63,057 nucleotides of DNA, filler included, from Sluysia triapertura (GCA_046118255.1; 4 parts of 4 records of this genome joined end to end with filler, not necessarily neighbours in it); one strand, 5' to 3'; shown: positions 19,129 through 63,057, counted from the first letter of the whole stretch. The notes: generated by a model not told the origin, from the sequence alone. Numbers and translations: made by a program.

Positions 19129-19189
19129 CCATCATCAGTATTGACAATACTCATTATTGTAAATACATTTATGTCAATACTGATGATGG
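19129..19189. other. Perfect 18-bp stem hairpin in cassette A
   Basis: CCATCATCAGTATTGACA-25 nt-TGTCAATACTGATGATGG. Confidence 0.9.
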
Positions 19190-19375
19190 CTCTTCGCTCA
19201 TTCATCTGTATTTTTATGCTACACAAAATTTTGTCTTACCGGATTTCTAATGGCCGGTAATTTCAACGGACAAATTATAAATAAAGCATACAATAATCAC
19301 AACCTAATACTTACAAAAATAGAATACCCTTAAAATTACAAAAAAAGAAAAGAGTATGATAATGACAAATTTCAA

Positions 19376-28997: not shown

Positions 28998-29051
<54 letters not shown>

Positions 29052-32000: not shown

Positions 32001-34987
32001 CGATTGTTTAGTACATGTATTTCATAAACGCAATCAAAATTATAACTGCTTTAACTTGGAACGAAAATAATAATAATGTTAGACTTCATTAAATGAAGTC
32101 TGACCTGGATTCGAACCAGGGCCCTCTTACCTCACAGCTGTGAAGTTCGATGCTCGAACCATTAAGCTATCATCCCGTCTAACAATTTTAGATTATTGTA
32201 GTCAATTATACTATCCTTATTTTAAATGGCAATAATAATAATAATGAATAATGATTATAATAGTAATAATAATAATAATAGTAATAATATTTATCAATAA
32301 TAATTATTTTATAAATCATTATTTTGACCTTGTTGCTCAAATAGATCATTTTACTTGGCATGTACATGTATGGCTACTAAATCAGTGTTTTCAATTTCAT
32401 AAACAATAACAAATAAACAAAAATTTTATATTAATTAATTAGTAATATTTTATAAGAAATATAAATTGCATTATTTGTGTGTTTTATTTTAGACTTGTTT
32501 TTGAATTACCACCAACTGGTGGCGTCTTTAAATTTTCTGAAATTAAAACTGTCAAATTATTTCGCTATGTCAGTCCATTCGATTATTTCGTTATGGCTTG
32601 TGAAATTATTTATCTTTTATTTATTGTCTATTATATAATCGAAGAAATTATTGAGGTTATTTTTTAATTTTTTACTATAAACAAATTTTATCAAACAACC
32701 ATTTTATTATGGCACTTCTATTTATGTTATTGAAGTATTTTAAAACTTTAAAATTATTTTATTAGTTTCGATACTACTAATATTAAATTAGTAACGAAAG
32801 ACTATGACAATAATTTGAGAAAAACGATTGAAAACTTTAATAAAATAATTTAATGTAACTGGAACTTAGAACGACAATACATATAAATGCTTTTGGAAAG
32901 CAAGTTAACACAAAAAAATAAAATAGTAGGATGTGGGAAATACGAAATATTAATAGGATAGAAATGAAAAACAAATGCAAAATTCACGTAAATAAATAAA
33001 TTATATGATCAGAATTAAAATATATATAATATATAATTGATTTATTTAAACAAAAAATTAAGAATTATCTTAATAATATATATGTTCTGCAATTAGGGTC
33101 TTTAACAAATGATCAAAAAATTTTAATAACTTATCGTATGTCTTTTAATAATTAAATAGGCACCAAAATATTAACTTTATTTACGAAATATAAAAAATTT
33201 TATAGTAATAACAAAAACAGAGATCAGTAATAAAAGTTTTTTTAAGGATTAAAGTTCGAAGAGCGTTTAATCTAATAACTATAATAAATGGAGTACATAT
33301 TATCGGGTACTTAATAATTATAAATAATTAAAAATTTAAGTTGATTTTATAATGTTGAAATTGAACTTAAAAATATATAAATTACCAATAAATGGAATGA
33401 TTTTGAATAGTTGTTGTTCTGTGGATATTTCCCAAATATTTCTAAAGTTATACCAAATATTACTAAAATTCCAACAATGACGCTGCAAAATTGTACTAAA
33501 GGAGAATTCCAAATTGCGACTAATTTAAAATTTCAAAATGGAGATGCTAGTTTATATACTAGCCAATAGGAATCGAAAGAACATTCTAGAAGCTTCTATT
33601 CTATTTTTAGAGGCTAATTTTCTTTTTTTGAAAAATGATTTCTTTTTTTGGAAATAAATATTTTAAAGTAATTTTAAAGGTTTTAAAAGATTTTTAAAAC
33701 ATTTTAGATAATTTAAAATAATAGATACATTCAAAACAAATCTTGAATATGTAAATATTAATATTTACTTTATAATACCTAAATATCTACGAATATTTAT
33801 GTTATAATTGAAAAAATTGATAAAAACGTAAAACAAATAATCTTAATAAATCTTACAGTTATTCGGTCATATAATTTATTTTCATTCGTCTTATATTAGT
33901 TTGCATTTAGTGTTTTTATATTATTTCTGTTTTATTATCATTCTACAGAATTCCTATTTGATCCGCAACAATTTCCATCTATATTTCCCACATTATGCAC
34001 TTTTCTTTTCCTATGTTAACTTGGTTTTCAAAGGAATGTTTTATTGTTTACTAGAATATTTGGGAAACATTAAAGACCTTAAAGTTCAAGTCTTAAAGTT
34101 TAAGAATGCTTTAACTTGCTCCAATCCCCGTTAATTATATATCAAAATGTGGAACACATAATATTAAATAATTTTGTAAAATAAAAATCATTCAAAATTA
34201 AAACTAATAAATCTAATTTTCAAGTTTAAGTGTTAATTTAAATTTAGCACAACAGAAAAATTCCCTTTATTATTTATTAAATTTAAAAAGTGCAATTATC
34301 AGAACTTTGATAAGTTTTTCATTAGTGTCCTCGTTTTTATCCATGAGTAATTATACATACAGAAAGACTTTATGATGAACTTCAAACTTTCGAAAGAATT
34401 TTTTTGTAATAAAAGAATAAACATAATAAAATGCTAATTAAAAAAATTATTTCTTAGCGCAGATACAACTTTCATTTTATCGTGGTTTGAGTTGAATATA
34501 TCCTAACAAATAGATTGCCATTATAGCCTTTGACACAATTATGGCAAAAGTTTATTATCATGGCGACCCTAATACATGGAATTATGTATTTTAATATCTA
34601 CATAAAAATATTACAAATACCTTATAAAATCAAATAAAATTTTTGCACACTTTTAGGAAAATTTAAAAAAATCAATAAGATAAAATTATTGTGCGTAAAT
34701 TAAAGTACATTTTCATTTCATTTCTCATTTTTATTTTATATATTGTTTAGATTAAGAAACACCGATGGTCATATTTTAAAGAATTCTGGAATATATTGGA
34801 TTTATTTGTTATTTTAATAAGTATAATTTGTGCGATATTCAACATTTATCGAGTTATATATATCGATAATACTTTTCGTACTGTTTTAGAAAATACTGAA
34901 GTTTTCGTAGATTTTTATTTCATTAGTTATTGGCAACGAATTTTCAATGAAGCTATTTCTATTACTGTTTTTCTTGTAATGGTCAAG
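25423..34987 (+). CDS. PKD2: Polycystin-2 (PKD2/PKD2L, TRPP channel), 5' part; truncated by contig end
   Basis: Phase-compatible exons 25423-25699, 25745-25858, 26922-27031, 27259-27506, 31747-31965, 32493-32655, 34751-34987. Motifs AWATR...KTTFREMFTY, FIYFENQLISVPQIRQLRVKNGTC, LWIRKGTRVIFVDFTVYNVNINMF, LVFELPPTGG, FVMACEI and FWNILD match polycystin-2. Confidence 0.93.
28998..29051. repeat. (ATT)n microsatellite
   Basis: Perfect run. Confidence 0.95.
29340..29640 (-). mobile_element. Decayed retroviral-type integrase core (Gypsy/Ginger-like) in PKD2 intron
   Basis: QTDKGTNFT, RFHNYVKTMI and SVHSHTLF in shifting frames resemble SDNGT(N/Q)F / ERFH.TLK.ML / SVHS.TGF. Confidence 0.5.
32077..32195 (-). 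mobile_element. tRNA-derived SINE-like element
   Basis: A box TAGCTTAATGG and B box GGTTCGAATCC; flanks shared with the 41176-41284 copy; AAT tail. Confidence 0.7.
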
Positions 34988-35246: not shown

Positions 35247-35346
35247 NNNNNNNNNNNNNNNNNNNNNNNNNNNNNNNNNNNNNNNNNNNNTTAATTAATT
35301 AANNNNNNNNNNNNNNNNNNNNNNNNNNNNNNNNNNNNNNNNNNNN
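35247..35346. other. Artificial contig linker
   Basis: N44-TTAATTAATTAA-N44. Confidence 0.97.
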
Positions 35347-41175: not shown

Positions 41176-41284
41176 AATCTAAAAATTGTTAGACGGTGCT
41201 GATAGCTCAGTGGTAGAGCATTAAAATGCGTAACTATAGGTCACGGGTTCGATTCCCAATCAGTCCATTTTATGAAGTCTAACA
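41176..41284 (+). mobile_element. tRNA-derived SINE-like element / tRNA pseudogene (core 41195-41266)
   Basis: A box TAGCTCAGTGG and B box GGTTCGATTCC; the anticodon arm pairs poorly; flanked by TGTTAGAC...GTCTAACA and AAT repeats. Confidence 0.7.
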
Positions 41285-42821
41285 ATAATAAAAAATAAAT
41301 AATGCATTTAAATTGAAAAAAAAACAAATTTGTAAGAAAAAATTATCAAAATTAGTGATGTAATGCCAATTGATATATAGTATTATTAGTTACTCGTAGT
41401 TTTTATTATTTTTTCATTGACAAAATGATTGATTTATAAATGATAAATGTTTCTGTTTAATTTATTTGGCAACTGTTGTAAAATGCATTAACACTATATT
41501 TGTTGTCAATATTAAAGAATTTAGGAATGGAATTTTTTGTAATATCCTATTAAAAAAGATAAAATAAGTGATTTGAATATATAATTTATTTTGAAAAAAT
41601 TCTGCAGAATTTTAATTAAATTTAGTAATGTGAATTGTGTCAAACATTTAACAGTAATGTAAAGTGATATTAACATTAACTATTAGTATTACATTATTTA
41701 CATAAATTAACTAAATATTTATTAGTTGATATAAGTTCTGTCATTAATTAATATAAAATTAAATTCTAAATTTAACATTATTTCATTTTTAATTTTAAAT
41801 AAAACTTAAATTTTATAAATTTAATTTCTATTTAGATGTTTTATTTTGAGTTAATATAAGTTATTGATTACTTATGCAGTTAATTAATAAAGCAAAAAGA
41901 TCAAATTTAGAAATACAAAAATCCGAATTTAACTAAAAATACAATATTAAAACAAAGCCTCATTTTTGTGAAATAATTAAATATAATTAATTATAATTTA
42001 AAAAACATAATTAAATGTGTAATCAACTAATTTGATCACTTGCTCGGCTACTCTTGAAAAACTGTTATTGCATCGAAACATTTTGTGGTGGCCAACCCAA
42101 TATTTAAGAATTTTATTTTTATCAAGGCACAATAAAATTATCTTTCACAATGTTCACAATTATTTTTATCAGCAAACATTTTAAATATAAAATTTTACAA
42201 CAGCAAATTTTATTCGACATTCAAAATCATCAATCATACTCTCAAAAATCAAATTAACACATTTTAAAATTAATTCAACATACTGCACATTCTATAATAT
42301 TTTACCCATCTTTCTATCAAAACCTTTTTCATATTTTATGCCCTCAGATCCACTAGAACTATTCTCATTTAATACATTTTAAGTTACAGTTTTGACACCT
42401 TCAAATAAATTCATATATTCATGACCTGTCATCATTCAATCCCTAACATCTGAGAAAGATAATATTACCTAAAATCATCAAAAAATAAATCATACTAAAA
42501 GTTATCTTTTTTACATTCACTAAACCACACTCTCTCAATGTATCTTTAGGTCACAATCTCCCAATATTCAAACATTATCTTTAGTCACAAACATCAATTA
42601 GCATCTAAAAGTTCATTGTAAACATTCTACACACTATCATACAGCATTGTAACCTTAATCACACCTTAAAACATCAGACACGCATTTAGAACTAATTCAA
42701 ATCAACTTTCATTTAAAATTTTTTTTCTAAATAAATTCAAATATGTCTATAATTATTAAAAATGTAAAAGCAATATTCTGTAAATATTAAGATTTCAAAT
42801 AATTTAAGGACGTTATGTATT

Positions 42822-42901
<80 letters not shown>

Positions 42902-43563
42902 CGGCAACACTGTTGTTGTTATTATTATTGTTATCATATTTAATTTTCTTTAATTTTTAATATGTTGAGAAAGTAAGAAATTAACAGAAAAATCATGTAA
43001 TAATTAGGATGGATCTTTAAAGGATTTATGTATTTTAGGATAGTAATAATAATAATAACATTCTTGTTATTATTATTATCACCATTTTTAATTGTTATCA
43101 TTTTTAATTCAAGTTAATTTTATTGTGAGATTTATTAATTTAGTAACTACCACTACCAGTGGTGACTGCATTAATTTACAATGACAGTCAATGTCACCAA
43201 TGATAGTGGTTTGCATATCAACCAATTTGTTTTGGCAATTGTTACCGGTTGTCCAACCAGAGTGATTTTCATCATGATTTTTATATACATCTGGTTGGAC
43301 AGTCAATCAGATTGTTCATTTATATGAAATTTTGTGTTTCTAGCATAATAGCCTAATATTCTAATTTATTTGTGAACTAAAAACAAAGTCAGACACGCAG
43401 ATAAGGATTTCATTGTTGGTGCACACAAAAATTAATGTAATAACTAAAAATAGACAAAGAAATTAAAAAAAATTACCAATTTTATAAAAAAAATTAGTAG
43501 AAATAACAAGTTTATTGATAATTAAAAATTTTATCAACAGTTATATTTTGTAATTTGATAATT

Positions 43564-43813: not shown

Positions 43814-44648
43814 AAACAAAATTGATTTCAATTCACAAGCATTGTCGGAATATAAAGTAATGAAGTATTACAATGGTCATTATGATGTACATTATGTTAA
43901 AGTTATTACTAAAGGCGGAGTTTGCGCTAATGAAGTTTTTGAATACACTGTCAATATGGCATTGAAATTAAGACAACTATTAGACAAGTCAATTAGAGAA
44001 CTACATTTCAAATCAGATACGTCAATGTTAACCAACTTAGACTCAAATAATGTTGTTTTCGATCTCTTCAAAGTTCTTAATGTCAAATACCTATCAATGT
44101 TATATGTGGAACCTACTATATATAGAGTTGATGACGATGATTCTTCTCAAGCTACGCAAACACAGTATGCAGAACTAACTAACGTCAAGGCACATATTAG
44201 TAGTAACGTCACTGGATATTTAACGCCAAAGGGTGCAAATGAAATTCAAGAAAATATCAAACTCCTTACTGGCAGTTCATATCATATTGAATTTAAAGAT
44301 GTTTTACAATCAAGGAAAACCACAATTACTATGAAATTATCAAATTCTAACCAAGTAATCAAAAATGCTATCTACCTATTCGACAGCAATCAAGATGGAG
44401 TTTGTGTTAAGTATGGTATGCTCATGCAGTGAACCAGTTAGCACTTTCAAATACCGAATTCCTACAACGCCTGGATCATTTTTCCAGGATTACAAACATC
44501 TTAAATAGCCTCAGAGTTTCAAATCTAAATGAGATCAATAACAATTTGTGTATCCATGAACCTAAAGTAATTATTTCTTATCCATTTTATAATGACATTA
44601 ATTTTTGTGATTTTTATTTAGATGTCGAAACAGTTGGATCGAGAGTAA
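43814..44648 (+). pseudogene. Cassette B cargo ORF, unknown protein (one apparent frameshift near 44420)
   Basis: ORFs 43842-44432 and 44429 onward; candidate introns 43785-43813 and 44567-44621; short last exon and AATAAA. Confidence 0.55.
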
Positions 44649-45289
44649 GCACATCCGGGATTAAAATAATTAACGTTCAATGTAATTTTAATAAATTTTT
44701 ATGTAGTTATAGTTCATTTATAAATTATTTTATATTCCGAAAAGCACAATACAATAAAGAATTAAGAAACAAGAATTTATATAAGATTTCAATTTACTTT
44801 TTTAAACTCAATCTAAAATCATATAAAAGTGTCTTAACACATTTATTTTTGGATAATTTTTTAAATAGTACATAGATATATCTGCCGGTGGAGGGCTGGT
44901 ATAGCTCTAACATATCGTTTTCTAATGGTTTAGCGCAAATACAAGTTTAAAATCAGATTGGTTAAATGTTGTGCATTGAGATTTAGTATAGGTTTTCGTT
45001 AGAGTGAGAGTAAATTAAATGTGGATATCTTGTTTTTACTTTATTTTCTTTGTAGACGGAACTTAGGCTTTATTTATTTTAAGCAATCAAAATATTTTAT
45101 TTGTTAGTTAATCAGAAAAAAATAGTTGTTTGTCACCGCAGATAACCGTAACTTAATCTGCGACCAATCATACTTAGGCAATTTTTACATGAATGTGATA
45201 TATAATATTATCAGTTACATGCATAAGGATTACATCTATGAAGATTCTGTGGTTATCGCGCATTACATACAATAATATTTAGTAAAAAT

Positions 45290-46242
45290 AATACATTAAT
45301 ACAGTCTAGTAACGACGCCGATTACACTGTTTAAGACTTGTATTATACTGATGAAGGATTCGCTTAATGAAGGTAACCTAAGATCATAAATAGAAGTTAA
45401 AGTAATGAGTTCGCCTGTGATTCAAGACTTACAGAATGGTTTGTGATAGCCGGGTGCTATTATAATATCGAGCGAAAACATAATTATTAATTCGGAAACA
45501 TCTTTATTATAAAAGGAATTACTAGATCTGGGCTTAAGGCCCTCTTCAAATTTTAAAATCACATTATAAAGATCAATTTTATGAAAAGTGGACTTAAGGT
45601 CCTTTTCGTTGTTAAAATTAAACAGAGTGATATTACGGAAATTCGGCTTAATGCCTTTAATACTATGAGAATATTGCAATTTAAATGAATGACATAAAAC
45701 AAAATAAAATTTAGACATATATTCAAAATAAAACCTTACCACACCACACGTTTTTAAATGTAAGATGTACTGGAGGTCTTTAGGATAAATGATGCTAAAA
45801 CAAACAAAAATTCGAGTGACGAAATCTGATAATAATATAAACAAATTAAAGAAAACATAACCGCATCTTTCATAACGAAATAAGCAGTGAATCTTTGAAT
45901 GGGATAATTTAAGCAAAACTTTTGATAATGTCAGGCATACTTGCACCAGGTAATCCTAAACTAAACGGCCTTTTGTTAATACAGTTACGAGCCACTTGAG
46001 GATTTTCTCTCGTTTATTTTTTGCAAATACATTAGATAAGTCTTTGAAATGTCTTGAAATTCAAAATCCTCCTCATGATCCATTTTAAATTTACGATACA
46101 GCTTTAGACTTGTGACAATCGCCTTAAACATCTTTATAACGTGAACTTTTAAATTTATAGCAATCATTTTTAAACTTGTAGCGTCTTTCTTCAAATTCTC
46201 AAACATCTTTATAACATGAACTTTTAAATTTATAGCAATCAT
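45290..46242 (-). pseudogene. Orphan, disrupted, probably spliced ORF of unknown function
   Basis: ORFs 45985-46242 and 45422-45946; a 42-bp segment is duplicated at 75-bp spacing (46126, 46201). Confidence 0.35.
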
Positions 46243-46456
46243 CTTTGAATTTGTTCAAAATATTTTATTATTAAAACAATGAAAAACAAAACCCCTTTTT
46301 AATAATCAAATAAAAATTGTTTGGCTACAACACACAACCAATGAACATTAAAATCTAAAAATAGTTCATTTTAATAAGCACAACCTTGATACATAAATAC
46401 TTTTATTATAGTTTTATCTACTTGTAAATAATGAATAGTTTATTAATGGATAATAT

Positions 46457-49047
46457 TTATAAATTAGATTTTAAAATCTGTTCCTTATCCGGTGAACAAT
46501 TGGTCGGTAAAAAAACTGTTTCTTCTAAACTCTGATTTTGATTGGTTAATTCTTTGGCATTGTCTGCCCAATCCTTTGCAGTTTTATTTAGCTTTACACT
46601 TCCACTTGAACGTGTGGAATTTTGTATTGATTCTTTTTTATGTTGTCGTTTCTTGGTTGAAGATTGAGAGAAACTGTTCTGAGAGTCGATTGAGGTCGAG
46701 GTATATCTGAATAGTATATAGGAACCCTTACCATGGTTATAATTTTTATTATTTTATTGTTATTATTATATCATTACTATTATCATTTTATTTTATTGTT
46801 ATTATCATGTTTATTATTATTATTATTACTATTATTATTATTATTCGTCAATTTCGCTTTAGAACAAAAGAATATTTTTAAAAATATTTGGAATTTGGAA
46901 TTTTCTTTTATTGTTAACATTGTATGCAATAAAAATAATTTTTGTTCAAAAATTATCTACTGAAAAATATAAACAGAAAATAGTCAACCTCTTAAATGAC
47001 ATCCGCTTAGCCAGTATTTTTGATACCACCTCCTCCTGTGGTCCGACGTTCTCATCTTCTTGTTCTTCAATGTCTTTACCCTCGTCATCGGAATTCAGTG
47101 ATTGATGTAGTGGAAAGTTCACTATGCAACGAAATATATCTTTGTCCTTGGACAGCTTCTCATTTTTGAACAGCCAGTATGTTAAATACGACACGAATAG
47201 AATGACTAGGAGTGACATGACCATGCAGAACGTCTTCAGAGGGAAGAGTGAGTCACCTTCTTTCTATAGGAAATATAAACTAGATGTATATATACACTGC
47301 GACTAACCGTAAATAATGGCAGTATGGGTGGTAAAGATAACGAGCTTTCGCCTATCATCAGTCGCAATACGAAGCCCACCAGATAGCCCGAGAGAGATCC
47401 ATATGTATTACTCCATTCCACGTGCACCACGCATATTAATTGTGGAAATATAATGACGTAGACCATGTCGGAACACAAGAACCACAATGAGTAAATCGAT
47501 TCTATTTGAATTGCCAAGTAGCAAGCGAGAGCGCCAACCAGGAACACGCTAATCCTCATGGTCCAGATTATCTGCAATCATACAATGAAATAATGGCTCA
47601 TTATTATTGTCGATGGTTCAAATAGGACAGACAGATCATGTTTCATTGTAAAATAAACTTTACTTAAAATCTTACTGAATTTTAATAATTGTTAAAATCC
47701 AATTAAATCTATCTTAATTCTTTCATTACAATTCTAAAATAAATAAAATCAAAAGCTACAACTTTAATTATATTCAATATAAAGTAATTGCAATAATAGG
47801 GAAATAAAAACAAATAATTCCAATCAATTTTTCCAAATTATCTATTCTTACTATTATAAATCTAATATTCAAAACTACATTCACCTAACCGTAATTCAAA
47901 TAAAATAAGAAAAATAAACAAAATAATAATGAAAATAAAATGAAAACCAGGACTGATGTAACACAAAATCTAAATAAAAATTCCGTAATTTGAATTTATT
48001 ATAATTTAAATAATTTATTTATAACATTAAAAAAATAATAATAATGATTATTAAGATGAACCGTTCAACCAGTTGCGCGTTAGTGAACGTCATTCGTCAG
48101 TGTCCCTGATTGGAGACCTTTTACCTGCACTACTCCAATATGATTTTAGTAATTTATCCACCACCTCCAAAATTTCATTTGGGATCATTCATCCCTGTTT
48201 TTGTGCTACACACTGATACGACTTGAAATAGGAATCAACTGACTACAACTAAATTCTAAAGTGCATATGCAACGGATATGAGAATATTTGCAACCGTTTT
48301 CTAAGATCAAAGCAAGACTAAAACACTAAAATAACAAATTAGTCCTGCTCTTTAATTGTGAATTGTTCATAGATCTAAGTTCCTCGAGATTCAAATGTAA
48401 AGTCTTGCCAATTTGGAAGATATTCCAAAAGAAGGCTTGAAGATAGCAGATTATATAGCAAGATAGAGACAAACTTGAGGTTGCGGTATGAAAGGTATCC
48501 TAACTTTGATGTTACATTATTTAAAGTCGAGATTCTGACATTCCTTATGAAATAGAAGATAAATATGCTGATTCCTTCAAATGAAACAAAAGAACCAATC
48601 ACAGATGATTTATTACAAGTTGTCGATGAATTGATGTTATCGTCGCATTTCTTAATTCCTAGAACATACTGTTGCACAAAGTAAGCCCTTCTTCCGAATA
48701 TCTCGAATAATTCATCTTTATCAGGATATGAAATGAACAGCACAGAAATTATTTTAAATTTTAACTTTTGAAATAAAGATATATTTGTAACAATTAAATT
48801 TGCGTTACCATGTTATCAGATGCTTTCTGCCAAACAATGGATTTGAAGACATTTCTGGCGAACATAGAAGCAGCTGATAAAATTGAAGAATCGGCAGATG
48901 ACATTACCGCAGCCGACACAGCCCCAAGGCCGATGACACCCACAAATTCTGGACAGAGATATCGAAGAACTAGAGGTAGTATTTTGCGGCGCTCACTGTC
49001 CGGTATGGTGCCGTTTACAAGACCCGAGTAATTTGTGAAACTCCAAT
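46457..49047 (-). CDS. SLC5A7: High-affinity choline transporter SLC5A7/CHT1-like, 3' exons
   Basis: Exons 49047-48809, 47571-47308, 47263-46989, 46706-46457, in phase and ending in TAA. ILPLVLRYLCP...GLGAVSAAVMSSADSSILSAASMFARNV, LWFLCSDMVYVIIFPQL, SNTYGS and FPLKTFCM match CHT1. Confidence 0.92.
48050..48740 (+). mobile_element. Possible decayed hAT transposase in SLC5A7 intron
   Basis: Coding-like composition with many stops; weak hAT-like motifs (R*SERHSS..., YPNFDVTLFKVEI). Confidence 0.35.
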
Positions 49048-49519
49048 CTGAAATTAAAAAATCGAATGTCTAAAATTCAGCATGCTATAGGTGTATTTTG
49101 ATGGAACATATAATGCTGAAGAATTTTAAAGGACAATTATTGTAGAAGTACAACTATTGTAGAAGCACATAGAATGCAACATACATAATAATATTTATGA
49201 AATAAGCATACTATTTCATGATATTCCAGAAACTCGACATCATCTAGTAACTAGTTTATATATTTTTGAAATATAAAAGGTATTTGCACTGTCGGGGTGT
49301 CAGTGTAAGGTTTAAACTTTAAACGAATTAATAATAATAATAATAATAGACCTACCAGAAAATTATGTCCGATAACACAATATCAAATTTCAACATATAT
49401 GTGAATATTAATTTGAGAGATGCATGACTGCATGTATATATACGAGACCCTGTAAGCAAATATGACTTATGTTAGTTGTGTAAACATGAGTACTGATAAA
49501 GTTCATTTATGACACTCTA

Positions 49520-50375
49520 TTTGTACGAATTCCATCAAGGAATATATGTTACAGAAGTTGTAAATATTTAGTAAAAGTGTTTGGTGAAAGTACAGTTTCT
49601 GATAGGACATGCAGGAGATGATTCGAAAAATTTTTAAAAGGTGATTTCGATCTTACTGATAAACCACACTTTGAGTGGACATATTTGATCGATTACAATT
49701 TTATTAAAGTCACATTAGATCAAGATCCTTTTCTGACAATATCGACGATTGCGGAAAGGCTTAATTCAGCTCAGCAAACCATTTCGGACCACATTCGAGA
49801 GGGGTGCCGCATGAGTTAAATGAAAAACATTTGAATGATTGAGTCATCTCACATGTACATCTGGGAACAAAGTCAAACTGGGGATCAGAAAACATCGCAC
49901 GAAAAATGGGACAACCTGACCCCTACACCGATCTTGAGCTTTGGGATATTCGAGAACTAATGAATTAAGATCTTTTGAAACCGAATAAAAAAACCAATTT
50001 CGAGAGGTAATGACAACAATTAGATGATTTAAACAAAGCACTCACAGAAAAGAGGCCGGAACTATTCAATAGGAAGGAAATCATACTAAATCATGATAGT
50101 ACCAGGCCTCATACTGCTTTGGGGACTCGTCAGAAACTCGCAGAACTAGGCTGGAAAATTCTACCCAGACCTATCACCCTTCGATTACCGCTTGTTACAA
50201 CATTTTTTGAAAGCAAATGAATTCAGAAATGAACCAGGCCATTTTACAAACTGCCATTTCTCTGTCAATGTGTCGTAACTAATAAGGGAAACTATATTCT
50301 GCAATAAATATTATTAAAGGTATGAAAAATTTATTATTTTGTTGATTCGATAAGCGTACAGAACCTTCAGGTATA
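49520..50375 (+). mobile_element. Decayed mariner transposase
   Basis: SDRTCRR*FEKF..GDFDLTDKP, VPHELNEKH, NHDSTRPHTA..TRQKLAELGWKIL and PDL...DY motifs. Confidence 0.9.
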
Positions 50376-51829
50376 ATAAATAAATTATAATTAATAATAA
50401 TTAATAATAAATTAGTAATATAAGTTAATAAAATATTTTATCCCAGGAGGGTGCCCATATTACAAACATAATTTAAGCTATAATGCCCATCTTTAAAATA
50501 AAATATCGAATGACCTCAGCAAAAAGTTACAAAGACAAAAATATCTGCACATGACGTTGACTCCACAGAAATGACCACTCATAAGAAACCCCACCTCCCT
50601 GGAGGCAGTTCTTATTCTAGATTGTTTAGATTGAATATTATATTAAATTTGGATTTCGTGTGAATAAATTGGAAATGATTTTTTAGTTTTCATTTATGTG
50701 CACGAAACTTAGAGTACTACACGGGCTTTTATTTTAAGTAGTCAACGTCGATTTTAATGGTCAGTTAATCAGAATGTTAAGTCGCGTGTTTGTTACAGCA
50801 TCTGTTATGATGTGCTACAACTTATATAATTTTACAATATGTGATTTACAATATTACGTATAACACGATTATGCCTACGAAAGTTCTGTGCTTTCTCAAT
50901 TAACATACTCATACATATTCCTCGTCCAAAGAAATCTCCATCTCCAATAGTACCAACCTAATCTTGTAATGATGTTGCTGCTAATTGTTATTAATCTTTA
51001 GCATACGAAGTTATAAAAACAACAAAATGTGCTGAAAACCGATTTTTTAAACTCAACGATGAATTTTTTATGATCACTCCTACTGTTTTTTATTCATAAA
51101 AATATTACTAAAGTGATCCATAAAAAATTTCATAAATGCTAGATGTACATAGCATTCGTCTATTTTGACCATTAAATTAAAAGTTAGATATATCTGACAT
51201 TCGTAGACTAAAAGTTAGATATTAGTTAATAATAACGGAAAGTCATCAAGATCGAGAAACCTAAATATTCAAGTTTATGAATGCATTTTAATAATAATAA
51301 GACATTTGCCTTCATATCTCAAGAGCTGTGGCAATAGTAAAAATATATAGGATACAAATTGCAAGAAAAAATAACAAATAAATACATTTATTACAAATCG
51401 TCATTAAAATAATCATATTATCATTATTATTTTCCAGCCAGTACCTCGTGTCATCGTTGTTGGATTGTGCAATTTTCCTTTATTTGATCGCTTATAACTG
51501 ATCGTTTTTGGACCCACTTCTGATGTTATCTGGAGAATAAATTGTACTGTTTTAGAAACATTCTTTTTTATTTTTCTTGACTTATCTCGGTGCCTTTCAG
51601 AGTGACTATTTTAGTCTTATTCTATTCAGTAGTACTAGATATTAATGAAAAGAATTTGGGCCTCAAAAATATCCATTCAATATATTTTACCTTACTCTAA
51701 TATTATATCTTGAAATTTAGTATTATATATTGGATTGTTGATATCATAATTTTGTTGGGATTAGTGAAGAATAAGGGTTGATATAAGGGTCAAAACTTAG
51801 GATAACAGAATAAGTTGAACGTTATTAAA

Positions 51830-51929
51830 NNNNNNNNNNNNNNNNNNNNNNNNNNNNNNNNNNNNNNNNNNNNTTAATTAATTAANNNNNNNNNNNNNNN
51901 NNNNNNNNNNNNNNNNNNNNNNNNNNNNN
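51830..51929. other. Artificial contig linker
   Basis: N44-TTAATTAATTAA-N44. Confidence 0.97.
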
Positions 51930-52699
51930 ATATGCACGAGAACATTCAGAGTGATGGCTATTTTCAGATTATATTACTGTAAATTAGAAATTTGAATGTA
52001 TAATTAAAACAAGAACTTTTATGGGCAATATTAAAAAAGACAGAATGCATGGCAAGAATTCTTTTTCGAATCCACACCAGCGACATGTCACAGGAAAGCG
52101 AGGTGGAGGTTCGGAGGATATAAGTTAACCTTTAAAATATTGTTGCGCCTTAACCATGAATACAGAAGAATGGTCACTTAATTGGAGCAAAGATGGTGTG
52201 CCAGATGGAAGTTTTCATAAGGCAGTCGGTAAAATAACACTGACATTGAAGCGTTTTCCAAATTCGACTATTGGAAAGATTGAAAGTACTACAGATATTT
52301 CTCTACTTTATCTTTATGAAATGGACCAAACGTAATATCATCGCCTCCAGTGATGTCAGATTTAATTACCAGTTTAATCTCATCATCGGCAAAAAGGAAA
52401 GTAATCTGAGCTCCAAGTTAAGAAAGGAAGTCCTTTTTTGTAGCCGTGCATGTAGAGAACCTGGTCTTGATTCTCGGGAACAATGAGCAAAGTCGGAACC
52501 CGGATATAGGCGTTTAATAAATTTTTATGGTCTATATAGTGAAACCAGTCCACTGTTGGATTGATCCACAAGTGCGCTTTAGCCTAAAGTTACCATTGAG
52601 ATGCTGCGTTGATATTGCGACTGCTCCATTTTGTTTAATATAATTTAACATAACATATAATAATTTAAGAGTAATATTTTTAACATATTAGTTTTAGCA

Positions 52700-54850
52700 A
52701 TGTAATTTTATAACTGAGAGAAAAACTAAGGTCATGTATCATATTTCTGGTCTTATAAAAGGTAATGCCGATTTAACAGCAGATTTAAAAAATTTATAAT
52801 GAATCGTTCTCAAATATATCAACAATTTATAGATGGATAATTGCATTTAAAAGAGATAGATCAAATGTACATGACAAAAGATTTGGTAGATATTCAATTA
52901 TAAATGAAAATTTATCAATAACGTCAAAAGAAAATCATTGCAAACAAAAAAATCATGGTATCCTAAAAATATCTTGATAAAGGAAGTTATATTCAAGTTT
53001 GTGCCACGTTTTTTAACTGCAGATACGTTAAAATATGAAAAAGAATCATGGAATGTAGAATAACAAAATATGACAGAAAATAATATTCATATTTATTTAT
53101 ACCAAAACTAGAATGTCATTAAAATGTAAACATGCAAATGCTTGTTAAGATGAAGCAAAGGAATTTCAATGAAATAAAAAATTTAAATAAATCTTCAATT
53201 AAGCCTCACAGAAATAAATATAATCGCAAATACATAGCAAACATCTAGCGATGGCAAATTGAGATTGTATTGTACCATATGTGTATATATTATTTTGATT
53301 ATAAACTTTCTTAACTGTTATTTTCTGTATAAGCCACTGAATCATATAAAACGAGATGGCTTCCAAACAGAATATATCTTCCAATTTACGTTCTTCAACC
53401 ATGAAACAATTATCGTAATCTCTTTTGATATTTCCAAAGACAATGTGACAAGGATTTAAAGTAAAGTAATTTAAAAAAATTATTGTCCATAGTTGTTCTT
53501 TAAATGAATTAAATCTTTTTCGCATGTATCAGAAATTTAATCAACAAATGTGACATTGGTATTCTCGCATTTTGGTTCCATTTATAAATATACCACACCA
53601 ACTGTATAAGATCAGAAATCTTTAAATAAACGTCATTTATTTCGATTATTTAAACAAATTCCTTTTATTCTGACACATCAATAAAAACGCTGAACGGCTT
53701 AATAATTTTAAGGTAAATTTTTAGATAATAAAAAATACTCCCTCTGTCCGGAAATATGGTATGCATTTCAAAAAAATCATAGATTATGGAGGATATCGAA
53801 AAAATATTCATTATATTAGTATTGTATGCATTGAACGTCACATAACCTAACATAATTGGCAGGTGTTGCGTTCGTGTAAAGTAAGAACTTGACGATCAAA
53901 GATAAGATTTTTAAGATAAATAAAATAGGTACCGCTGTGATTTGCAAATGGAAATATCCGAAGAAAAATTGATAAACTTAAAAAGAGATGCCAAATATAA
54001 ACAATTGACCGAACAATAACGTCATGGCATCCTAGAAAAATTATTACAGCACATGAAAGAGAACAAGTTACAACACGGTTACAAGTAAATCTTACCAATA
54101 ACGGAGATGTTCTTTTTGATGATTTATATGACTACATTCATATTGACGAAAATTATCTTAGTAAAATTAAACGCTCTTATTACCTAATGTTAGACGAAAA
54201 AGAACCTCAGAGAAACTTTTATAAGATCAAATTTCTTTAACATGAAGCTTCCCCCAACACAATTAATGAATTGATTGATTGTGTTCCAAATTCATTTAAT
54301 AAATTAGAAAGAAATAATATTGATGTTTTTACCACATTATGGAATCAATTATGTTAATGGGTGGAAGAAATTCTTACAAAATTCCCATATAAATAAGACA
54401 AAATTTCGTCTCGAGAGTCGATTAGCTGAAAATACGGTCAAATCCTATTTGAATTAAATTTGTATTTAATTATATTGTTTAAATATGTATATAATATAAT
54501 TTGTATGTTAAATTTTAGTTTTATTTTATTTTTTTCGCAAATGTACATCATATTTTCGTACGACAAAAATTGCCAAATGTAAACCACATTTCCGGGCAGA
54601 GGGAGTAATTGAATCAAGAAATCTCGTAATATTTTACAGAATTAATACATACTTATCATTAAATCGATTGAGAATTTCAACAATTGTCAGGTTTGATGGA
54701 ATCAAATCTAATTCAACATTTTCATAACGTAAACGTTCAGAAATGAGTATTTTTAAAATAAAACTTGTTATTCTATGAGAAATTCGATTGGAGACGTCAA
54801 TTTTTATCGGCAAAGTAGCATTGTTCATGTGGAATTGTCTTTTCCAGCTA
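52700..54850 (-). pseudogene. Possible pseudogene of a receptor with periplasmic-binding-protein-like ectodomain, interrupted by a mariner
   Basis: PIKIDVSNRISHRITSFILKILISERLRYENVEL resembles the S..I...ILKILL.E.LGY.V motif of type-II binding-protein domains. Fragmentary coding-like frames continue downstream. Confidence 0.3.
53738..54605 (+). mobile_element. DD39D (plant-type/Stowaway-related) mariner, internally deleted
   Basis: TA TSD; 23-bp TIR CTCCCTCTG(T/C)CCGGAAAT(A/G)TGGT; remnants FDDLYDYIHIDE...YYLMLDEKEPQR and PNTINELIDCV..SF...GGRNSYKIP. Confidence 0.85.
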
Positions 54851-57749
54851 TAAACTGAAATAATTCATAAATTCAATTGATTTAAATAACTTTAAAGGAA
54901 AAAATTTTTTCATAAAATTAAATTTATAATTAGATTTGTTATAATTATAATTAGATTGAAGATAATAAAAGTCCTTAATAAATATAATATAAACATAATA
55001 TTATATTATGCATGATGTAAATCATATCACGTGAATTACGTAAATAAAACCATTAAGTTATAAAATTTTTATGTAACAAATTAAAACCATTTTATAAATA
55101 AATAACTGCAAATTACTCAACTTTTAATAAAATATAGTTATTGATTGCGGTATTTGTAATTTATTTTGCATTACATTTTTCGTGAATTGACCATTTCAGA
55201 GATTTGAAAATGTAAATAACATATTAACACATTGAGAGATGACGTTAATTCACGTTATTTGGAATTTTAATTTATATAATTTCAACAAAATATATAATTT
55301 CAAGCTCTGTGCCTCAATATGTTAATAGTGCATTACAAATTTTCAATTAAATTTTAAATTTTCATTTTTTGAAGTATCATATTTACATTGAATTTTCAAA
55401 TTTTACTATGCATTGTTTTAAAAATAATTTACTGCTAGATAGAATTGCTATTTATTCCAGTAATACTTACTAAAGTGGATAAATCATACTTTCAACCTTG
55501 ACGTTTACATGAACTTGGTAACTTTTAAAATATAAAAATAGTTGAGATACAGTTTGGATTATATATACAAGTATATAGACCATCAATAATGATAACTTTT
55601 ATTAATGGGTTTAATGTGAACCTGGAAAAAGCAAATGTGAGCTTAACAACTTGATAAAAATGTTAATTTCGTTAAGTTACACTTGATTTAATAAAATTAA
55701 TAAGTCGATTGAAGGTAGTATTCTAAAAAAAGAAATTATGAAAGTATTGATACAAAAAATAAGCTGAAACATTTTAAATTAACAATTTATTTTGTGCTAA
55801 CCATATTAATCAATGTAACTTATTATTTTTTACAAAACACTCCATAAATTGCAATTTATCAATTTTAATTTCTCTCACGTTATGCCTTCTAGGTTGTTAA
55901 GTTGTCATGATATACGAAAACGAAGTAGTCCAAATGGAATTACTGAATATAATTAGTCATTTTGTGTTACTGCTACTGTTATGAAACTTGAGAGCTTTTA
56001 TTTCCTTCTACAGCTATTTTTCCTTTACTCACTGAGACATTGTTATATGCATCATTGGTAAGTTTCTTAATCATTCTAACATTCTTAAAACTATTCAATC
56101 TTTCTGAATAAATTTGAAACACTTCTTCATAATTTCTTCTATAACTTAATATCTTTTGTTATTTCGGTGGAATATAGATAGTTTTATATTGATTTTATTG
56201 AATAAAAATATCAATTGAATTATGATGTTTACTATAACGAAATATTTTACAAAAAAATTTGCATTTTGTCTAGTTTTTGTTGCTTCGATTACTTTCTATG
56301 ATTTTCGCAGTTAAATCTTTAACAAACTATAAGCAAAAATTAAAAATAACACAATCTAAGCCATAAAAAATAATAAAGTACATTCGATCATTAATTTACA
56401 AAACTATAAATTTAAGCTGCAATTTTATTCACATTACAGATCATTGATAATTAGAGAGACATCGAAAAATTAACATAAAGTTCAACGAAATGATCAAATG
56501 TTATTGTGGTGGCCAACTTCTAACTTAAAATTCAAAATAATCATTCTAATTACATTATTACATTCATTAACATTTTACATTTTTACCTTTTCAAAATTTA
56601 TCAAAACCTTTTCTAGATTTTACATTTTTTAGATCCATTAAAACTATTCTCATTTCAAAACACTTTAAATTCACAATCTTTTAACATCAAAACTATAATT
56701 ACAGTCAAACCATTAATGTACATTTCAAATTTCATTAAAACATTTTTAACTCACAATTTCACAACATTAGAATCACACTTTACATCTCAAAGTACCAAAC
56801 ATAAATTTCAAAGTTAATTCAAAACATTTCAAATTCAAAATCTTTCAACATTTACAACATTTATTTCTTAAAAAACTTTAAAATTTCATTTTAATATCAA
56901 CTTTAAAACATCGCATTTAAAATGAAAATTCTTTAACTTCCTGAACTATATTCATTCATCAATTCCTCTAACATCTTTAACTACATTGATACCTTTTATT
57001 AATTCAATAATATTACAGAAAATGTGTTCAAGAATTTTTGTTTTATTTTATTTATTTTATTATTATTAATTTTATCTTATTATCACTATTAATTCTTATT
57101 ATAATTATTATTACTATTTTACTTCATTATTTATTTTATATAATCATTATTATTATGTTTATCACTATTAAACGTTGTTACTAGCCATTGTAACCTGTCA
57201 TAAGTTGACAGATTTTAATTTAATTTCATGACGATAATTTTATAACTGTCAACTGATGACAGCTGCCTGGTTTGTTTACATTTTTATCAAAATGCATGTC
57301 GATTGGTAATGTTTAGCCAACAAATAAGAGTTGTGTACAATTGATTCGCACACTGTCTCTGTTGATGCTGCATTGTTTATAGTATTTGATTTGGCACCCA
57401 ATCACTGATTTATAATCCAATTTTGATTTATAAGTTGGTTTATTACAAGCAAAAAAACTAGAGTAAACGAGCACTATTCATAATTAAAATTAAAGAGATA
57501 AAAATTCAGCTTTTTAAAAATTTAATGCTTACTTTACTAAATCAATGAAAAATTATTATAATTCAGTTATAGATAATGATAATAATAATTTAAAAGTAAC
57601 TGAAATTCAAAACCGATGGTTTTATCATTTTCAAGTAAAAATCGTATTCAGATTGTAATACGTACTTAGTAATTGATATTGATTATAACACTGTTACGTA
57701 TTCTCATTATTAAACATAAAATGTTATCAATGTTCAGAATATCAATGAA

Positions 57750-58336
57750 GAATTTTACATATCAAGAAAATAATACCCTTTGATGTTAATACTTGCGGAT
57801 TAATAGACAAGCAAGATACACGAAAGTTAGTAAAGTTTATTCATTGTAAACCTCAATTAATAAAGATCTTCGATAATATTCCTTTAGTATTTGCATTATC
57901 TGCTGCACACCATTGTTTTGAAGAACAAAAAAGAATATTCTATACGACATTATATGAAAAATGTTATCCAAAGTACACCAAATATTTAAATTATTCATTG
58001 GCTCTCAATGCACATCCGTTTGTTATAAACGATTACACGAAATCAGCTCAACCATCTGTATTTCCTTTTCCTTTGTCAGATAGATCAACTATGCATTGGA
58101 TTTTTGATTCTTTAAATTGGTGTTACCTTTTTTACATTGATGAAATAAATGAATCTTTGATCGAATTTCGAGTTGTTTACGAAGACATGATTAAGCTATT
58201 TGAACAAATCAAATTATTCTATTTTAAAGAAATGAATAAGCAAAAAACAATAAAGTTTTCGTTAACTATTACCAAACTACAATTTAGCAAATCAATAGAC
58301 AACTATATCATGTTCAAGACTTTCCTTATTATTTAA
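57750..58336 (+). pseudogene. Cassette C cargo ORF1, unknown
   Basis: Stop-free frame of ~195 codons (RILHIKKIIPFDVNTCG...FKTFLII*). Confidence 0.5.
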
Positions 58337-58564
58337 CTTTAAAGATACGTCTATTTTCTTTCAATGATCACAATATTGATATAAAAGTAAATCTTAGTGG
58401 GATTAAATTCATATTTAATAATGGCGTTATGATGAAAAGTTCCCATGAGGATATTCAACAGAATAGTTAAAATGATAATAAGTTTTACTATGTTTTTATT
58501 GAAAATAAAAGATTAAGTATTAAAAATCAAGTCCTGCTGTTTAAATTACAGTATTTATACAATT

Positions 58565-59150
58565 ATGGTAAAAAATGAAATTGAAAGAAGCTCCTGAATC
58601 AGAAAATGCTAATGCTCATCTACTAAAGGAGTTGGAGATCCCACACTGTCTCTTACATCATCTATGATGACTCAAAGAGGTTTTCAAAAAGTTACACAGT
58701 GGCTAAATATTGTTTATGATCCTAAGACAAATGTTCAAAGTCGATCTATTCCCATGCCAATTTTCAAAGCGATTTCCACCAATCAGTTACTTGCAGCACA
58801 ATGCCCCTACGGAGTGGATTCCTCCAATATTTGTATAAAGTATGGATTATGCTGTCCACATTATCACAACGTATTCGAAATCAACACTAATCAAGAACAA
58901 GCGATCGAACATAAAACAAGATTATACGATTTATTAGGATCAACAAAATATGGAAATTACCAATACCACCGACAGTTCAACAATAATCAACTAAAAGGCT
59001 ACTACCAAAGTAATGATATTATTTACAAAGTAATTTACATTTGCTTAACTATGTATAAATTATTGTTTATATAATAATTAGTTTATTTCGCAGGAATCTA
59101 CGACCAGAATAGTTGAAACGGCATCCGACTGCAGACACAGCAAAGTGTAA
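58565..59150 (+). pseudogene. Cassette C cargo ORF2, similar to cassette B cargo
   Basis: ORF from 58664; intron 59030-59093 (GTAATT...CGCAG) gives last exon ESTTRIVETASDCRHSKV*; two stops lie between the ATG at 58565 and 58664. Confidence 0.55.
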
Positions 59151-60637
59151 AATAGGAACTTTAAAAACATTTTTAGTAAAACTTAAAATTGATGTTTTTA
59201 AAAATAAAATTACGTTTTATTTTGTTTCTTTTTGTAAAATTTCAAATGCAAAAATGAAAAGTTAAATATAAAACTTATGAAATATTTTACAAGTATTGTA
59301 ATAGACTTGTAACTTTATATGTTTAAATTCCAAACAATAATTAATAACTAGATTACCTAAGCATATAACCCTAAAGATATATAAACTGCACTTGTACTAC
59401 GAAAAATAGAAAAACAATTCAAGCAAAACTAAAATATTTCAAACATTTACAAAGCATTTAAATGAAACAAAATTTATAATTTATAAAAATTATAATCTAA
59501 CCATCATTACTTTTACTCATTTTTTTGTCCAATTTAATACAATGTTTAAAAGAATAAATGTAAGTAGTAAAATAAAATAACATAAGTATTATTATACACA
59601 TATGATTCATCATGTTCCAGGTGAAGATAAAGAGATAATGCAAATTCCAAGTAAAATGCAATTTTGCAAATTATCCATATTTAACCAAACAAATTAGAAA
59701 TAATAAAACTATTCTGAACTGAGTAATTCATAAATATTAACATTATGTAATGTAACATAAAATTTGGCTTGAAAACATGCAAATGTTTAGATTGATTTCC
59801 GCTCTTCAAATATAATTGTTTTGGTAAATTTAAACAAAAAAGTAATAAATATAATTTGTAACAAATGTTTGACAAATATTTTATGTACTTATGAAAAATC
59901 AAGGATTAATAAATATAATATTAAGGTTTTTTTTTGCGCGATATTTTCAATATGCTTTGTCAACAAATATTTCAATATGTTTTTAAATTTTGTAAATAAA
60001 GGCATTATTTTATTTAAAAGATAAATGTGTGTAAATTAAGGAAATAGATTATGTAAGCTGTTACAATGATTTTGATCTTACTTCTAATTCTAACTGAATC
60101 ACATGTGTTTCTTTGGGACTGCGGAAATATCTTTGTTTAAGTACTTCTGAATTCTGTTTTAGAAATAAATTAACCCTATTAAATTAAACATATTGATTAA
60201 TTAACAAAACTTTGCATTTAATTCTTTAATTCGTTTATAACGATTATATGTTTTAGCTATTATAAAATGTGCAATTTTATTGCAAACAATCAAATATTAC
60301 ACAAGCTCATTCTGTGAATTACATTAAACATTGTATATTATAATTAAATTTAATTTAATCAATTTAACGAAAATATTTTGTAACTGTATTATAAACTATT
60401 TATCACAACTTCTTTCTTCATAGTGTGTTTAAATAATTTAACATTTAATGCTTTATATGTAACTTTAATTTTACTTTTGATGGGTTTTCATTTCATATTT
60501 ATTTAAATAACATTTCGACATAATTTCATTAATTTTATCTTATAACTTCAATGTATTTTATTTAGTAATACAAATTTTGCCATGGCAATTTAGTTCATGC
60601 TACAAAATAAATATTTTTTTCGATACATTTAAAATAC

Positions 60638-62309
60638 ATGGGTTTACGTTATGCTAAAAATACTATTGAATCAAAACCAGAATTTCGGAGAAAACGGTCA
60701 CTAGCTATTGAAAATGAACCTAATGCGTAAAAATAGATTTACTTTTAATTATATTTAGCAAACGCTGCCGTTCTACTTTCAATTATTTATATAATCATCT
60801 ATTTCTTAAAGGAGAAAATAGTGACATATGTATCAAGGCTTTCGACAAAAAATGGAATTTGCATAAAGTTTATATTCGACAAGTAAGCAGTTTAGAAAAT
60901 TTATATTTATAGTCGCCATATTTTGCTTCAATGTTTTCTGATTCTTGGATTGAAGCAAATTATTCTGAAGTTTCATTGGAGTTTACTGATTCTAATATAA
61001 ACGCGGAATCATTAAATATTGTTTTAGGAAGTTTTTATAATAACGACATCACATTGGATGAAGAAGGTATATTATCAATTTTAGCAACTAGTTTATGGTT
61101 CCAGTTAACGGATTTAACAGAACAATGTGAGGAATTTATTTTACGTAATCTTCGGTTAGGTTTCGTATTTTTTTAATATTGCTTAGTCTTGAGAATTTTG
61201 TATATTTTTATAATATTGCTGAAATCTATGAAATTTTACATTTGAGCAATAAAATTGTAGCATGGATTAGTCGCTGTATTATGATTGCAAAAGATTGTGA
61301 TAGTTTTTATGAGATTCTAAAATCAATTAAGTATATAAATTATTTTTTTTATTTTTTGTTTGTAGACCAAAGTTAATGTTGAAAATTGTACAATGTCATG
61401 AATTATTTGTTATACATGTTGAAGAAGATGTCTTGTTTTTAATTCTAAAGGTATGTTTCATTTAAAATGTAAATAAATTAATTATTCACTTTAATTTTAT
61501 ATAGTGGCTATATTTACAAAAGATATCTTACCCGAAAAAGTATAATGAAGAAATAAATTCAGGAATAAGAAATTTTTTTAAATATTCTGGTTTGTTTATT
61601 TATTAAAAGAATTATACTTTTAAGATATTAAAATTAATCAGTTTACTGAACCAGAAATCATCGAAGAAATATTTAAAGAAATAAAATGGCCTTATGTAAT
61701 ATCAACATTTTGTTCAGCATCTTCTGTTCTACAATTTTCAATTATTCCAAAACGTAATAAATATTTATTAAAATAATTAATGATTAAGATTCAAAATTTG
61801 TTTTTTGTCTTTTACGGAAGTAAAATTATTTCAGATAAATAATTTTAACGTAAAGTTTAACAATAATAGATCTACTATCTCATTATGTAGCAAGGTTAAT
61901 GTAATTTCGTTATTTTTTTCGAGATGTTTTAGATATTAGATTTACAGTGTCGAAATTTGGCTTTCTTTCTTAAAGTTTTTTTCTAGAGAACAACACTGAA
62001 ACGATTATTATTAATGTTTTTGTTGAAATAGTTTGTAACGTAATTTTCCATAGTAAATCTTGTTGCAAATATTTGTCAATTAATAAGAATTCTCCGTTTA
62101 ACTAATAATTTATTATTATTATTATATATAAATTCATTAATGAAATATAATATATTAATTTTGTATTTTCAAAGAGCCTTGTACGAAGATAATATTTTCA
62201 AATTCAGTGAATAAAAAAGGGTATACGTTTTCTTAAGCTTAATTACAAGAAGTATTTAATCTGATTAGATTCTTTATATTTTCATACCTTCTTCAATGTT
62301 ATTAGATAA
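60638..62309 (+). CDS. GMCL1: Germ cell-less (GMCL1)-like BTB/BACK protein
   Basis: MG start; STFNYLYNHLFLKGENSDICIKAFDKKWNLHKVYIRQSPYFASMFSDSWIE and LFVIHVEEDV...LKWLYLQ. Introns 60727-60758, 60883-60912, 61155-61186, 61331-61365, 61451-61504, 61590-61624 and more; the 3' exon boundaries are less certain. Confidence 0.88.
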
Positions 62310-62629
62310 TTGTTTTGGTTAACTATCGTTAGTTACCTATTTTAGTGTTCAACTTATTCATGAACGCAATCACAAATATTCAATACACAGTACACCTTCG
62401 CCACATCTTGCACAAATAACAACACCCAAAATATAACACACTTTTAACATATTACGCTAATATATCCTAACTTAAATAAAATATAATATACCTTAACTTA
62501 AATAGAATATAATATACCCAAATTACAATAATTTATCGAACAACGATACTTCAATCCGCCGATATCGCTCTACCCAACTACACCAACATTGTGCCAATTT
62601 TCACATCCTCCTTTATTTTATAATTTATA

Positions 62630-62936
62630 ATGACAATAAATAAGCGTATAAGTGTCACTTTGGAAGAAAATCGTAGTTTTAAAATTATAACAATAATTTT
62701 ATCTGTTGTTTTGGTATTATTCTTCAGTGGAATTCATTTTTTGTTAAATACACTTTATCCGATATTTGAAGAAAAACAATATTTCATAATTCTATGTAAT
62801 AATAGTTATAAAGTATGCCCAAAATCAATGTTTGGTTACGTTATAACAGTTGGAATATTATTTACAATTTTTCCAACACCGTTTACCGGTTTATTTTTTG
62901 ATAAAACTGGTTATGGAATTATATTAATAACAACAA
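62630..62936 (+). CDS. SLC43/MFS-like transporter N-terminus, interrupted by cassette D
   Basis: Hydrophobic VLVLFFSGIHF...YFIILC...C...FGYVITVG...PFTGLFFDKTG (MFS motif A G...D+.G), resembling TM1-3 of SLC43. Confidence 0.6.
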
Positions 62937-63057
62937 TGTAGTGGTCAACTTAATAACTCAAAATCAAAACAAACCGTAATAAAAAAACAACCTTCTCAAC
63001 AGCCATACTCCTTAATTCATAATCACAACACCACACATCTCATAAAACAATAATTCA
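62937..63057. mobile_element. Cassette D terminus (truncated by contig end)
   Basis: TGTAGTGGTCAAC followed by G-poor, C/A-rich sequence like the leaders of A-C. Confidence 0.65.

Follow-up and report, generated by a model that had tools for sequence, protein, structure and literature searches.

A candidate family of gene-capturing repeat cassettes, one with a Ski/Sno-derived fragment, in Sluysia triapertura

Introduction

Ski and Sno proteins carry a Dachshund-homology domain (DHD) followed by a Smad4-binding, SAND-like domain (accessible part of PMC5992185), and the zinc ligands of the SAND domain in Ski are Cys2/His2 (accessible part of PMC3413677). A ski fragment has also been described inside a mobile genetic element, as v-ski of the avian Sloan-Kettering retroviruses, where it is a functional oncogene of a vertebrate retrovirus (PMC5992185, same part). 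Gene capture by mobile elements is already known; the multicopy cases from animals in the accessible part of PMC8277862 are few and small, a survey of Pack-TIRs having counted 370 in 100 genomes, with a median insert of 224 bp and four multicopy cases plus Ssk-FB4, and the capture routes given there are template switching or gap repair.

Here, a window of 63,057 nucleotides (the whole stretch of DNA that was analysed, filler included) from Sluysia triapertura was found to contain three cassettes, A, B and C, which open with the same type of leader and then carry different coding DNA. We hold, with slightly better than even confidence, that they are old copies of a non-autonomous mobile element family, which captured pieces of host coding sequence, was amplified and decayed. 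Cassette C is like Pack-TIRs and elements of Pack-MULE type in animals in that host coding sequence apparently lies inside an amplified repeat, but its Ski piece measures at least 440 bp and exists in seemingly tens of copies, and no enclosing TIRs or target-site duplication were found (compared with the accessible part of PMC8277862). It is like v-ski in placing a ski fragment in what may be a mobile element; unlike v-ski, the fragment in C has decayed, and the element is without detected viral genes.

The window and its cassettes

The window consists of AT-rich eukaryotic DNA, mostly at 20-34% GC, in which Pfam recognised a BTB exon and, weakly, a BRCT domain, introns are short by eye, and some exons are presumably choline-transporter-like and PKD2-like. 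We read its source as an animal genome. The sequence TGTGGTGGCCAAC opens cassettes A (18186), B (42084) and C (56505), and a variant of it stands at 62937; the four leaders within 63 kb share this opening motif, and the DNA to the left of each is unrelated. The leaders and their parts are as follows.

18186 to 20158 (+): cassette A, with the same leader type and an 18-bp perfect hairpin at 19129-19190 (z -6.4)
42084 to 43427 (+): leader of cassette B, which opens with TGTGGTGGCCAAC and holds a C/A-rich tract, (AAT)n and two hairpins
43140 to 43310 (no strand): the two hairpins of the B leader, at 43150-43210 (z -3.0) and 43248-43300 (z -3.2)
43415 to 43427: terminal inverted copy, imperfect, of the start of the B leader
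56505 to 57447 (+): leader of cassette C, with the TGTGGTGGCCAAC start and a hairpin at about 57190-57265 (z -4.2)
57434 to 57447: possible inverted end of the C leader
62937 to 63057 (+): opening of a fourth leader, TGTAGTGGTCAAC, truncated by the end of the window

Each cassette is laid out as a C/A-rich tract, an AT-rich tract and hairpins, and then ORFs; the leader length common to the cassettes is 1-1.3 kb. A shared leader is directly supported by DNA similarity, at E 2e-12 between A and B and at 78% identity across 73 nt between B and C. At the DNA level the three cargoes gave no match to one another, and for the stop-interrupted ORF of cassette A no relationship with B, C or Ski was detected. 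The leader pattern was not found among viral and metagenome contigs.

Upon folding, four of 12 stretches stood out, with the remainder unremarkable. The leader hairpins are offered as pre-miRNA-like structures or as a signal at the DNA level; Rfam at the gathering threshold gave two tRNA-like matches only, none of them on the leader hairpins. In the three leaders (A, B, C) the hairpins lie in the same place although their arm sequences differ. The words TGACA/TGTCA occur 2-4 times per 200 nt at the leader hairpins, with about 0.45 expected. A match of A to the tail of C ORF1, spotted by eye, was dropped when 605 of 3000 shuffles proved as good.

The Ski/Sno fragment of cassette C

The sequence-only reading had recognised no known domain in the cargo, which is wrong for C ORF1. 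The frame around this ORF holds matches to both Ski/Sno domains.

57698 to 57835 (+): C-terminal half of the Ski/Sno Dachshund-homology domain (Pfam PF02437), with a stop at 57746
57893 to 58141 (+): Ski Smad4-binding SAND-like domain (PF08782), with Y, Y, N, Y in place of the zinc ligands
57998 to 58336 (+): C ORF1, the 3' part only of the Ski-like frame, whose open stretch begins at about 57749

Taken from stop to stop, the C ORF1 frame matched c-SKI_SMAD_bind at E 1e-3 and Ski_Sno_DHD at E 0.02, in the natural order. In this stop-to-stop frame the SAND-like domain scored 19.7 bits with PF08782, below the cutoff of 25. Once the stops were replaced by X, the DHD reached 35.4-39.5 bits (E 5e-10; Pfam cutoff 24.5) over model positions 60-105 of 109 only, its N-terminal half being not alignable. 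A custom Ski HMM gave the SAND-like domain 20.1 bits (E 4e-5). This HMM came from 60 metagenome loci with the Ski motif, of which 48 were in frame, 31 held both domains and 26 were distinct. Over C ORF1, DHD then SAND, it gave 55.9 bits (E 2.8e-16), with the next of 1260 tiles at 4.2 bits and reversed tiles at no more than 5.2. All three PDB matches of the read-through frame are Ski or SnoN domains; the C ORF1 frame matched 1SBX at E 1.7e-4 and 3EQ5 at E 2.4e-3, and 1MR1_C is the top PDB match for the SAND-like part. The Ski motif was not found among viral contigs.

Five stops (57656, 57674, 57680, 57686 and 57746) lie in or just before the DHD, the one at 57746 within it. The frame keeps 20 of 38 invariant Ski columns, has lost all of the Cys2/His2 zinc ligands of the SAND domain, and ends about 65 codons beyond that domain. 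These data directly support a Ski origin and a decay of C ORF1, which, as judged from its sequence, is a Ski/Sno-derived fragment, neither an orphan nor a working member. It is like the Ski, SnoN and Fussel (SKOR) co-repressors of TGF-beta/Smad signalling (1SBX, 3EQ5, 1MR1) in its DHD-SAND order (PMC5992185, accessible part), but unlike these it has stops, has no zinc ligands and sits in a multi-copy repeat. Between 57893 and 58000 all three Cys of the zinc region are replaced by Tyr, as is one His, and each replacement is one transition away; the changes from Cys and His to Tyr may reflect strong directional mutation in the cassette C repeat.

Copy number and variation among contigs

Contigs were compared from one public DNA data set, which may itself be the source of the assembly, and were placed on 51930-63057 only (n=5367, most of them less than 95% alike). 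The 16 variants listed for the cassette C cargo (57747-59010) are each carried by 12-41 contigs, and the flanks of the cassette are spanned by single contigs at depth 12-19. The summed depth of placed contigs, which is no copy number, is greatest over the C leader (7720, 5788 and 3532), falls to 988 and 916 in the Ski part and to 469 and 545 in C-middle/C2, and is near background by about 59350. These contigs show that C is a dispersed repeat present in multiple copies, and tens of copies is a fair reading.

Among the variants listed, 40 of 819 difference rows, two bear on the history of the frame. Twenty other contigs (depth 774 of 790) lack the stop at 57746, which suggests that this stop is private to the window copy and that the frame was open in the family's past. 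The invariant Asp of the SAND end, kept in the window copy, is altered by a non-synonymous change in 25 of the other contigs (depth 752 of 773), and amplification therefore continued after constraint was lost. Open-frame variants among the listed rows number 11, four synonymous and seven not, a split that is no guide to dN/dS.

The module shared by cassettes B and C

Cassette B carries two overlapping frames, of which the end of the first and the start of the second resemble the second ORF of cassette C (C ORF2, or C2).

43842 to 44432 (+): ORF B1, 196 aa, first ATG at 43860; its N-terminal two thirds are without assignment
44429 to 44875 (+): ORF B2, 148 aa, which carries B1 on in a different frame
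44295 to 44545 (+): part of B homologous to C ORF2, crossing the B1/B2 frame break near 44417
58664 to 59074 (+): C ORF2, 136 aa, of which 58724-58987 is homologous to B

B1, C ORF1 and C ORF2 stand where the sequence-only reading had placed them, and the stop-free frame of B1 runs to 212 codons, with a maximum of 125 among 300 shuffles. That reading had further proposed that four collinear motifs are kept between B and C despite little DNA identity. Three of them (T..G, QSR and [VI]C[VI]KYG) do occur, in order, in both B1 and C2, but S.NQ[VL] is present in C2 only, its counterpart in B1 being NQV, one residue out of register. QSR and C[VI]KYG fall on one gapless diagonal of 42 codons with 10 identities, as good a result being given by 31 of 1500 shuffles, and the DNA identity on this diagonal is indeed low, at 40%. 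When B1 was compared with C2 alone, the BLASTP E value was 0.012 for the single pair, and equal scores were reached by 161 of 5000 shuffles and by 214 of 4224 unrelated window stretches, which makes the four-motif similarity of B1 and C2 borderline.

The comparison becomes firm once it is run into B2. With an X at the B1/B2 break, B aligns with C2 over about 88 columns at a score of 75, which none of 5000 shuffles and none of 4224 window controls attained, the best control being 67; with BLOSUM45 one of 5000 shuffles did so. Without the Asn-rich tail the score is 64 (0 of 3000 shuffles), and when the junction was optimised for real and shuffled sequences it is 76, the highest shuffle reaching 74 (0 of 150). 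The start of B2 also matches the tail of C2 independently, at a score of 47 (6 of 5000 shuffles) and on nearly the same diagonal as B1 and C2. The homology is firm because the alignment runs over the frame break into B2: B1 and B2 are one gene, in which a small indel (or an assembly error) has changed the frame, and the middle of that gene is homologous to C ORF2. That the similarity arose by chance between AT-rich frames is very unlikely. Such a chance would fit the window controls that equal B1 against C2 alone, the other pairs among 36 tested that reach similar p, and a junction that was picked after looking, with one junction-optimised shuffle at 74 against 76; but it would have to account for the independent match of B2, for the zero counts across the break in all four of the 5000-, 4224-, 3000- and 150-fold tests, and for the homologous leaders that precede both B and C2. 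Two further candidates were dropped, an internal repeat within B (376 of 3000 shuffles) and a match of B2 to C-middle (298 of 3000).

The proposed link between the N-terminus of B and C ORF1 is at chance level, below the shuffle mean (4327 of 5000; 2797 of 3000). Its literal motif, F..LN..YL..Y, is absent from B1 and from C ORF1, and the F..LN..YL stretch of C corresponds to the last part of the SAND domain. With the B N-terminus and C ORF1 at chance, a fusion of two C genes in B is without statistical support. Protein-level selection, also put forward for this cargo, fares in part: on the 42-codon diagonal identity by codon position is 17, 21 and 12 of 42, and six of the 10 shared residues stand on different codons, a pattern that fits past constraint over very few sites, but present-day selection is without support because C ORF1 has stops, the zinc ligands are lost and the B frame is broken.

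In a collection of 5.8 billion proteins, searches with B1, the C ORF1 frame and C2 that were confined to near lengths gave no relatives at E 0.1, and none of eight ORFs had an exact record. Relatives of B1, C ORF1 and C2 were not found among viral contigs, and PHROGs and NCBIfam gave nothing below E 0.03. In the ESM Atlas the best match for B1 was at 0.89, with low recognition, and C ORF1 had no usable match; in single-sequence AlphaFold2 the pLDDT was 31.7 for B1 and 33.9 for C2, neither of which folds. A phmmer search of B1 against 1.84 billion sequences returned a single match, a 1756-aa secreted protein with Ig repeats, which was rejected as repeat-inflated. The proposal of an orphan family holds to the extent that B1 and C2 are without detectable database relatives, and fails for the Ski/Sno-derived C ORF1. 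The full view of the sequence-only reading, that of an orphan protein family still alive and selected, in which B fuses the two C genes, is very unlikely: the B/C2 homology, the codon-position pattern, the long open frame of B1 and the lack of relatives speak in its favour, but C ORF1 is Ski-derived, the B N-terminus matches C ORF1 no better than 2797 of 3000 shuffles do, and both cassettes are broken.

As to what the module may have been, C ORF2 contains C-x9-C-x6-C-x3-H, and in one of many scans it matched zf-CCCH_UNK (PF25427) with E 0.006 and 16.9 bits, the cutoff being 31.1. It is like an Unkempt-type CCCH finger in its Cys/His spacing and this weak match, and unlike one in being a single finger, far below cutoff, with the motif broken in B, which in the gapless register has Tyr at the first Cys and departs from the motif after KYG. 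C ORF2 may bear a closer likeness to Unkempt fingers. PDB searches gave no support for a CCCH finger in C ORF2. The other possibility is that all of the cargo is Ski-derived, with B1, B2, C ORF1 and C ORF2 as tandem decayed DHD/SAND copies of a lineage-specific expansion, mobile or not. C2 against the SAND end of the 26-sequence Ski profile was equalled by 3 and 2 of 200 shuffles, and with hhalign by 0 and 1 of 40; the B read-through against the DHD gave 0 of 40, a chain of B1 blocks 4 of 100, and the B2 tail against the C ORF1 tail 36 of 3000. However, unrelated controls match the Ski signals as well (SLC-like 4 and 5 of 200; BRCT 0 and 1 of 150), C2 against Ski under other scorings gave 9 of 150, 35 of 150 and 32 of 100, the tiles of B, C2 and A rank with the background for Ski under HMMER, and the Ski registers proposed for B are mutually contradictory. 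We regard a Ski origin of the whole cargo as unlikely.

Class of the element and proposed history

No transposase, RT or gag/pol domains were found in six-frame Pfam scans, and no target-site duplication at the candidate element ends, the right ends being not firm. In the 6 kb to the right of the A or C cargo there was no terminal inverted copy with 4 mismatches or fewer; in cassette B one inverted copy of the leader start, with 3 mismatches, lies at 46320 and is a candidate end. Because there is no transposase or RT, no target-site duplication and no firm right end, mobility is a point that we infer only.

The B and C leaders are bounded by TGT...ACA, their inverted ends being imperfect and, in C, placed where the depth drops. 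These ends, the leader coverage at several times that of the interior, as solo LTRs would give, and the Cys/His cluster in C2 could be read as an element of LTR type, with the leader as LTR, the shared module as the element's own gag-like or zinc-finger ORF, and Ski as the only captured piece. But nhmmer found no second leader after the cargo of any cassette, a single-copy contig (59014-61565) follows C, A has no such end, gag/pol matches are missing from Pfam as stated above, and no primer-binding site or purine tract was seen by eye, all of which makes the LTR type a quite improbable assignment. Helitrons end with 5' TC and with a 3' hairpin plus CTRR; the shared end here is TGT on the plus strand, or ...ACA on the minus strand, and only one end is defined. 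The accessible part of PMC6839031 contains nothing on TGT ends.

Under the preferred reading of a non-autonomous, gene-capturing family, the ancestor of B and C would already have held one coding module, now the end of B1 plus B2 in the one and C ORF2 in the other, which most likely derives from a small nucleic-acid-binding protein of Cys/His type. In the C lineage part of a host Ski/Sno gene would additionally have been captured, either through an RNA route or, as for Pack-TIRs (PMC8277862, accessible part), by template switching or gap repair. A parental Ski locus was not seen. Enzymes acting in trans would then have spread the element, presumably including B, to tens of sites, with the cargo decaying meanwhile. 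Some copies may still code, as the stop at 57746 is private and B1 has 212 open codons.

A more active role is conceivable, in which the cassette family is a library of captured regulatory domains, some copies being open, transcribed and selected, with zinc-less Ski decoys in TGF-beta/Smad signalling and hairpins that possibly give rise to small RNAs. There is some room for this because of the private stop, the 212-codon B1 and the hairpins kept despite sequence change; we think it quite improbable.

A thin literature search gave no case of a Ski/SnoN fragment captured and amplified by a transposon in an invertebrate. A Ski fragment in tens of copies within an unclassified element would, if true, be an unusually large case of capture, and such copies would inflate counts of Ski/Sno genes in the annotation of this genome. 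The cargo is probably dead, in which case it amounts to a curiosity of genome evolution.

Other features of the window

Three assembly gaps (17891-17990, 35247-35346 and 51830-51929) hold the spacer TTAATTAATTAA between runs of N, an artefact, and the apparent 100-nt 'inverted repeats' of the window arise because of these spacers. The two tRNA-like Rfam matches, at 41196-41267 (+) and 32096-32176 (-), were not called by ARAGORN and are offered as pseudogenes or SINE heads. A dispersed repeat of about 140 nt has three copies (13353-13484, 28253-28400 and 33578-33722), and decayed remnants that we take, by eye, to be hAT-like and mariner-like lie at 4000-4850 and 49200-50300. A second multi-copy repeat, at 53414-54526, has a summed depth of 450-1940, which is no copy number, and 45-64 contigs per listed variant site; its frames are decayed on both strands and without a Pfam match.

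On the minus strand, 29000-29650 is TGACA-rich by AAT tracts, like the hairpin zone of the leaders; neither the start motif nor stable hairpins occur in it, and among the tiles outside C it ranks highest with the Ski HMM, at chance level. To the right of cassette B, 45422-46242 (-) contains ORFs of 174 and 85 aa without Pfam or PHROG match, the 85-aa ORF containing a 75-nt tandem duplication. The stretch 62310-63057 combines a high-copy, leader-like piece (about 62390-62620), a low-depth hydrophobic ORF and the new leader at 62937; the ORF (62630-62941, 103 aa) has weak Pfam matches and is possibly another captured host fragment. A short piggyBac-like element at 14770-15311 matches zf-Tnp_2 at E 1.3e-8 and has, by eye, inverted ends flanked by TTAA.
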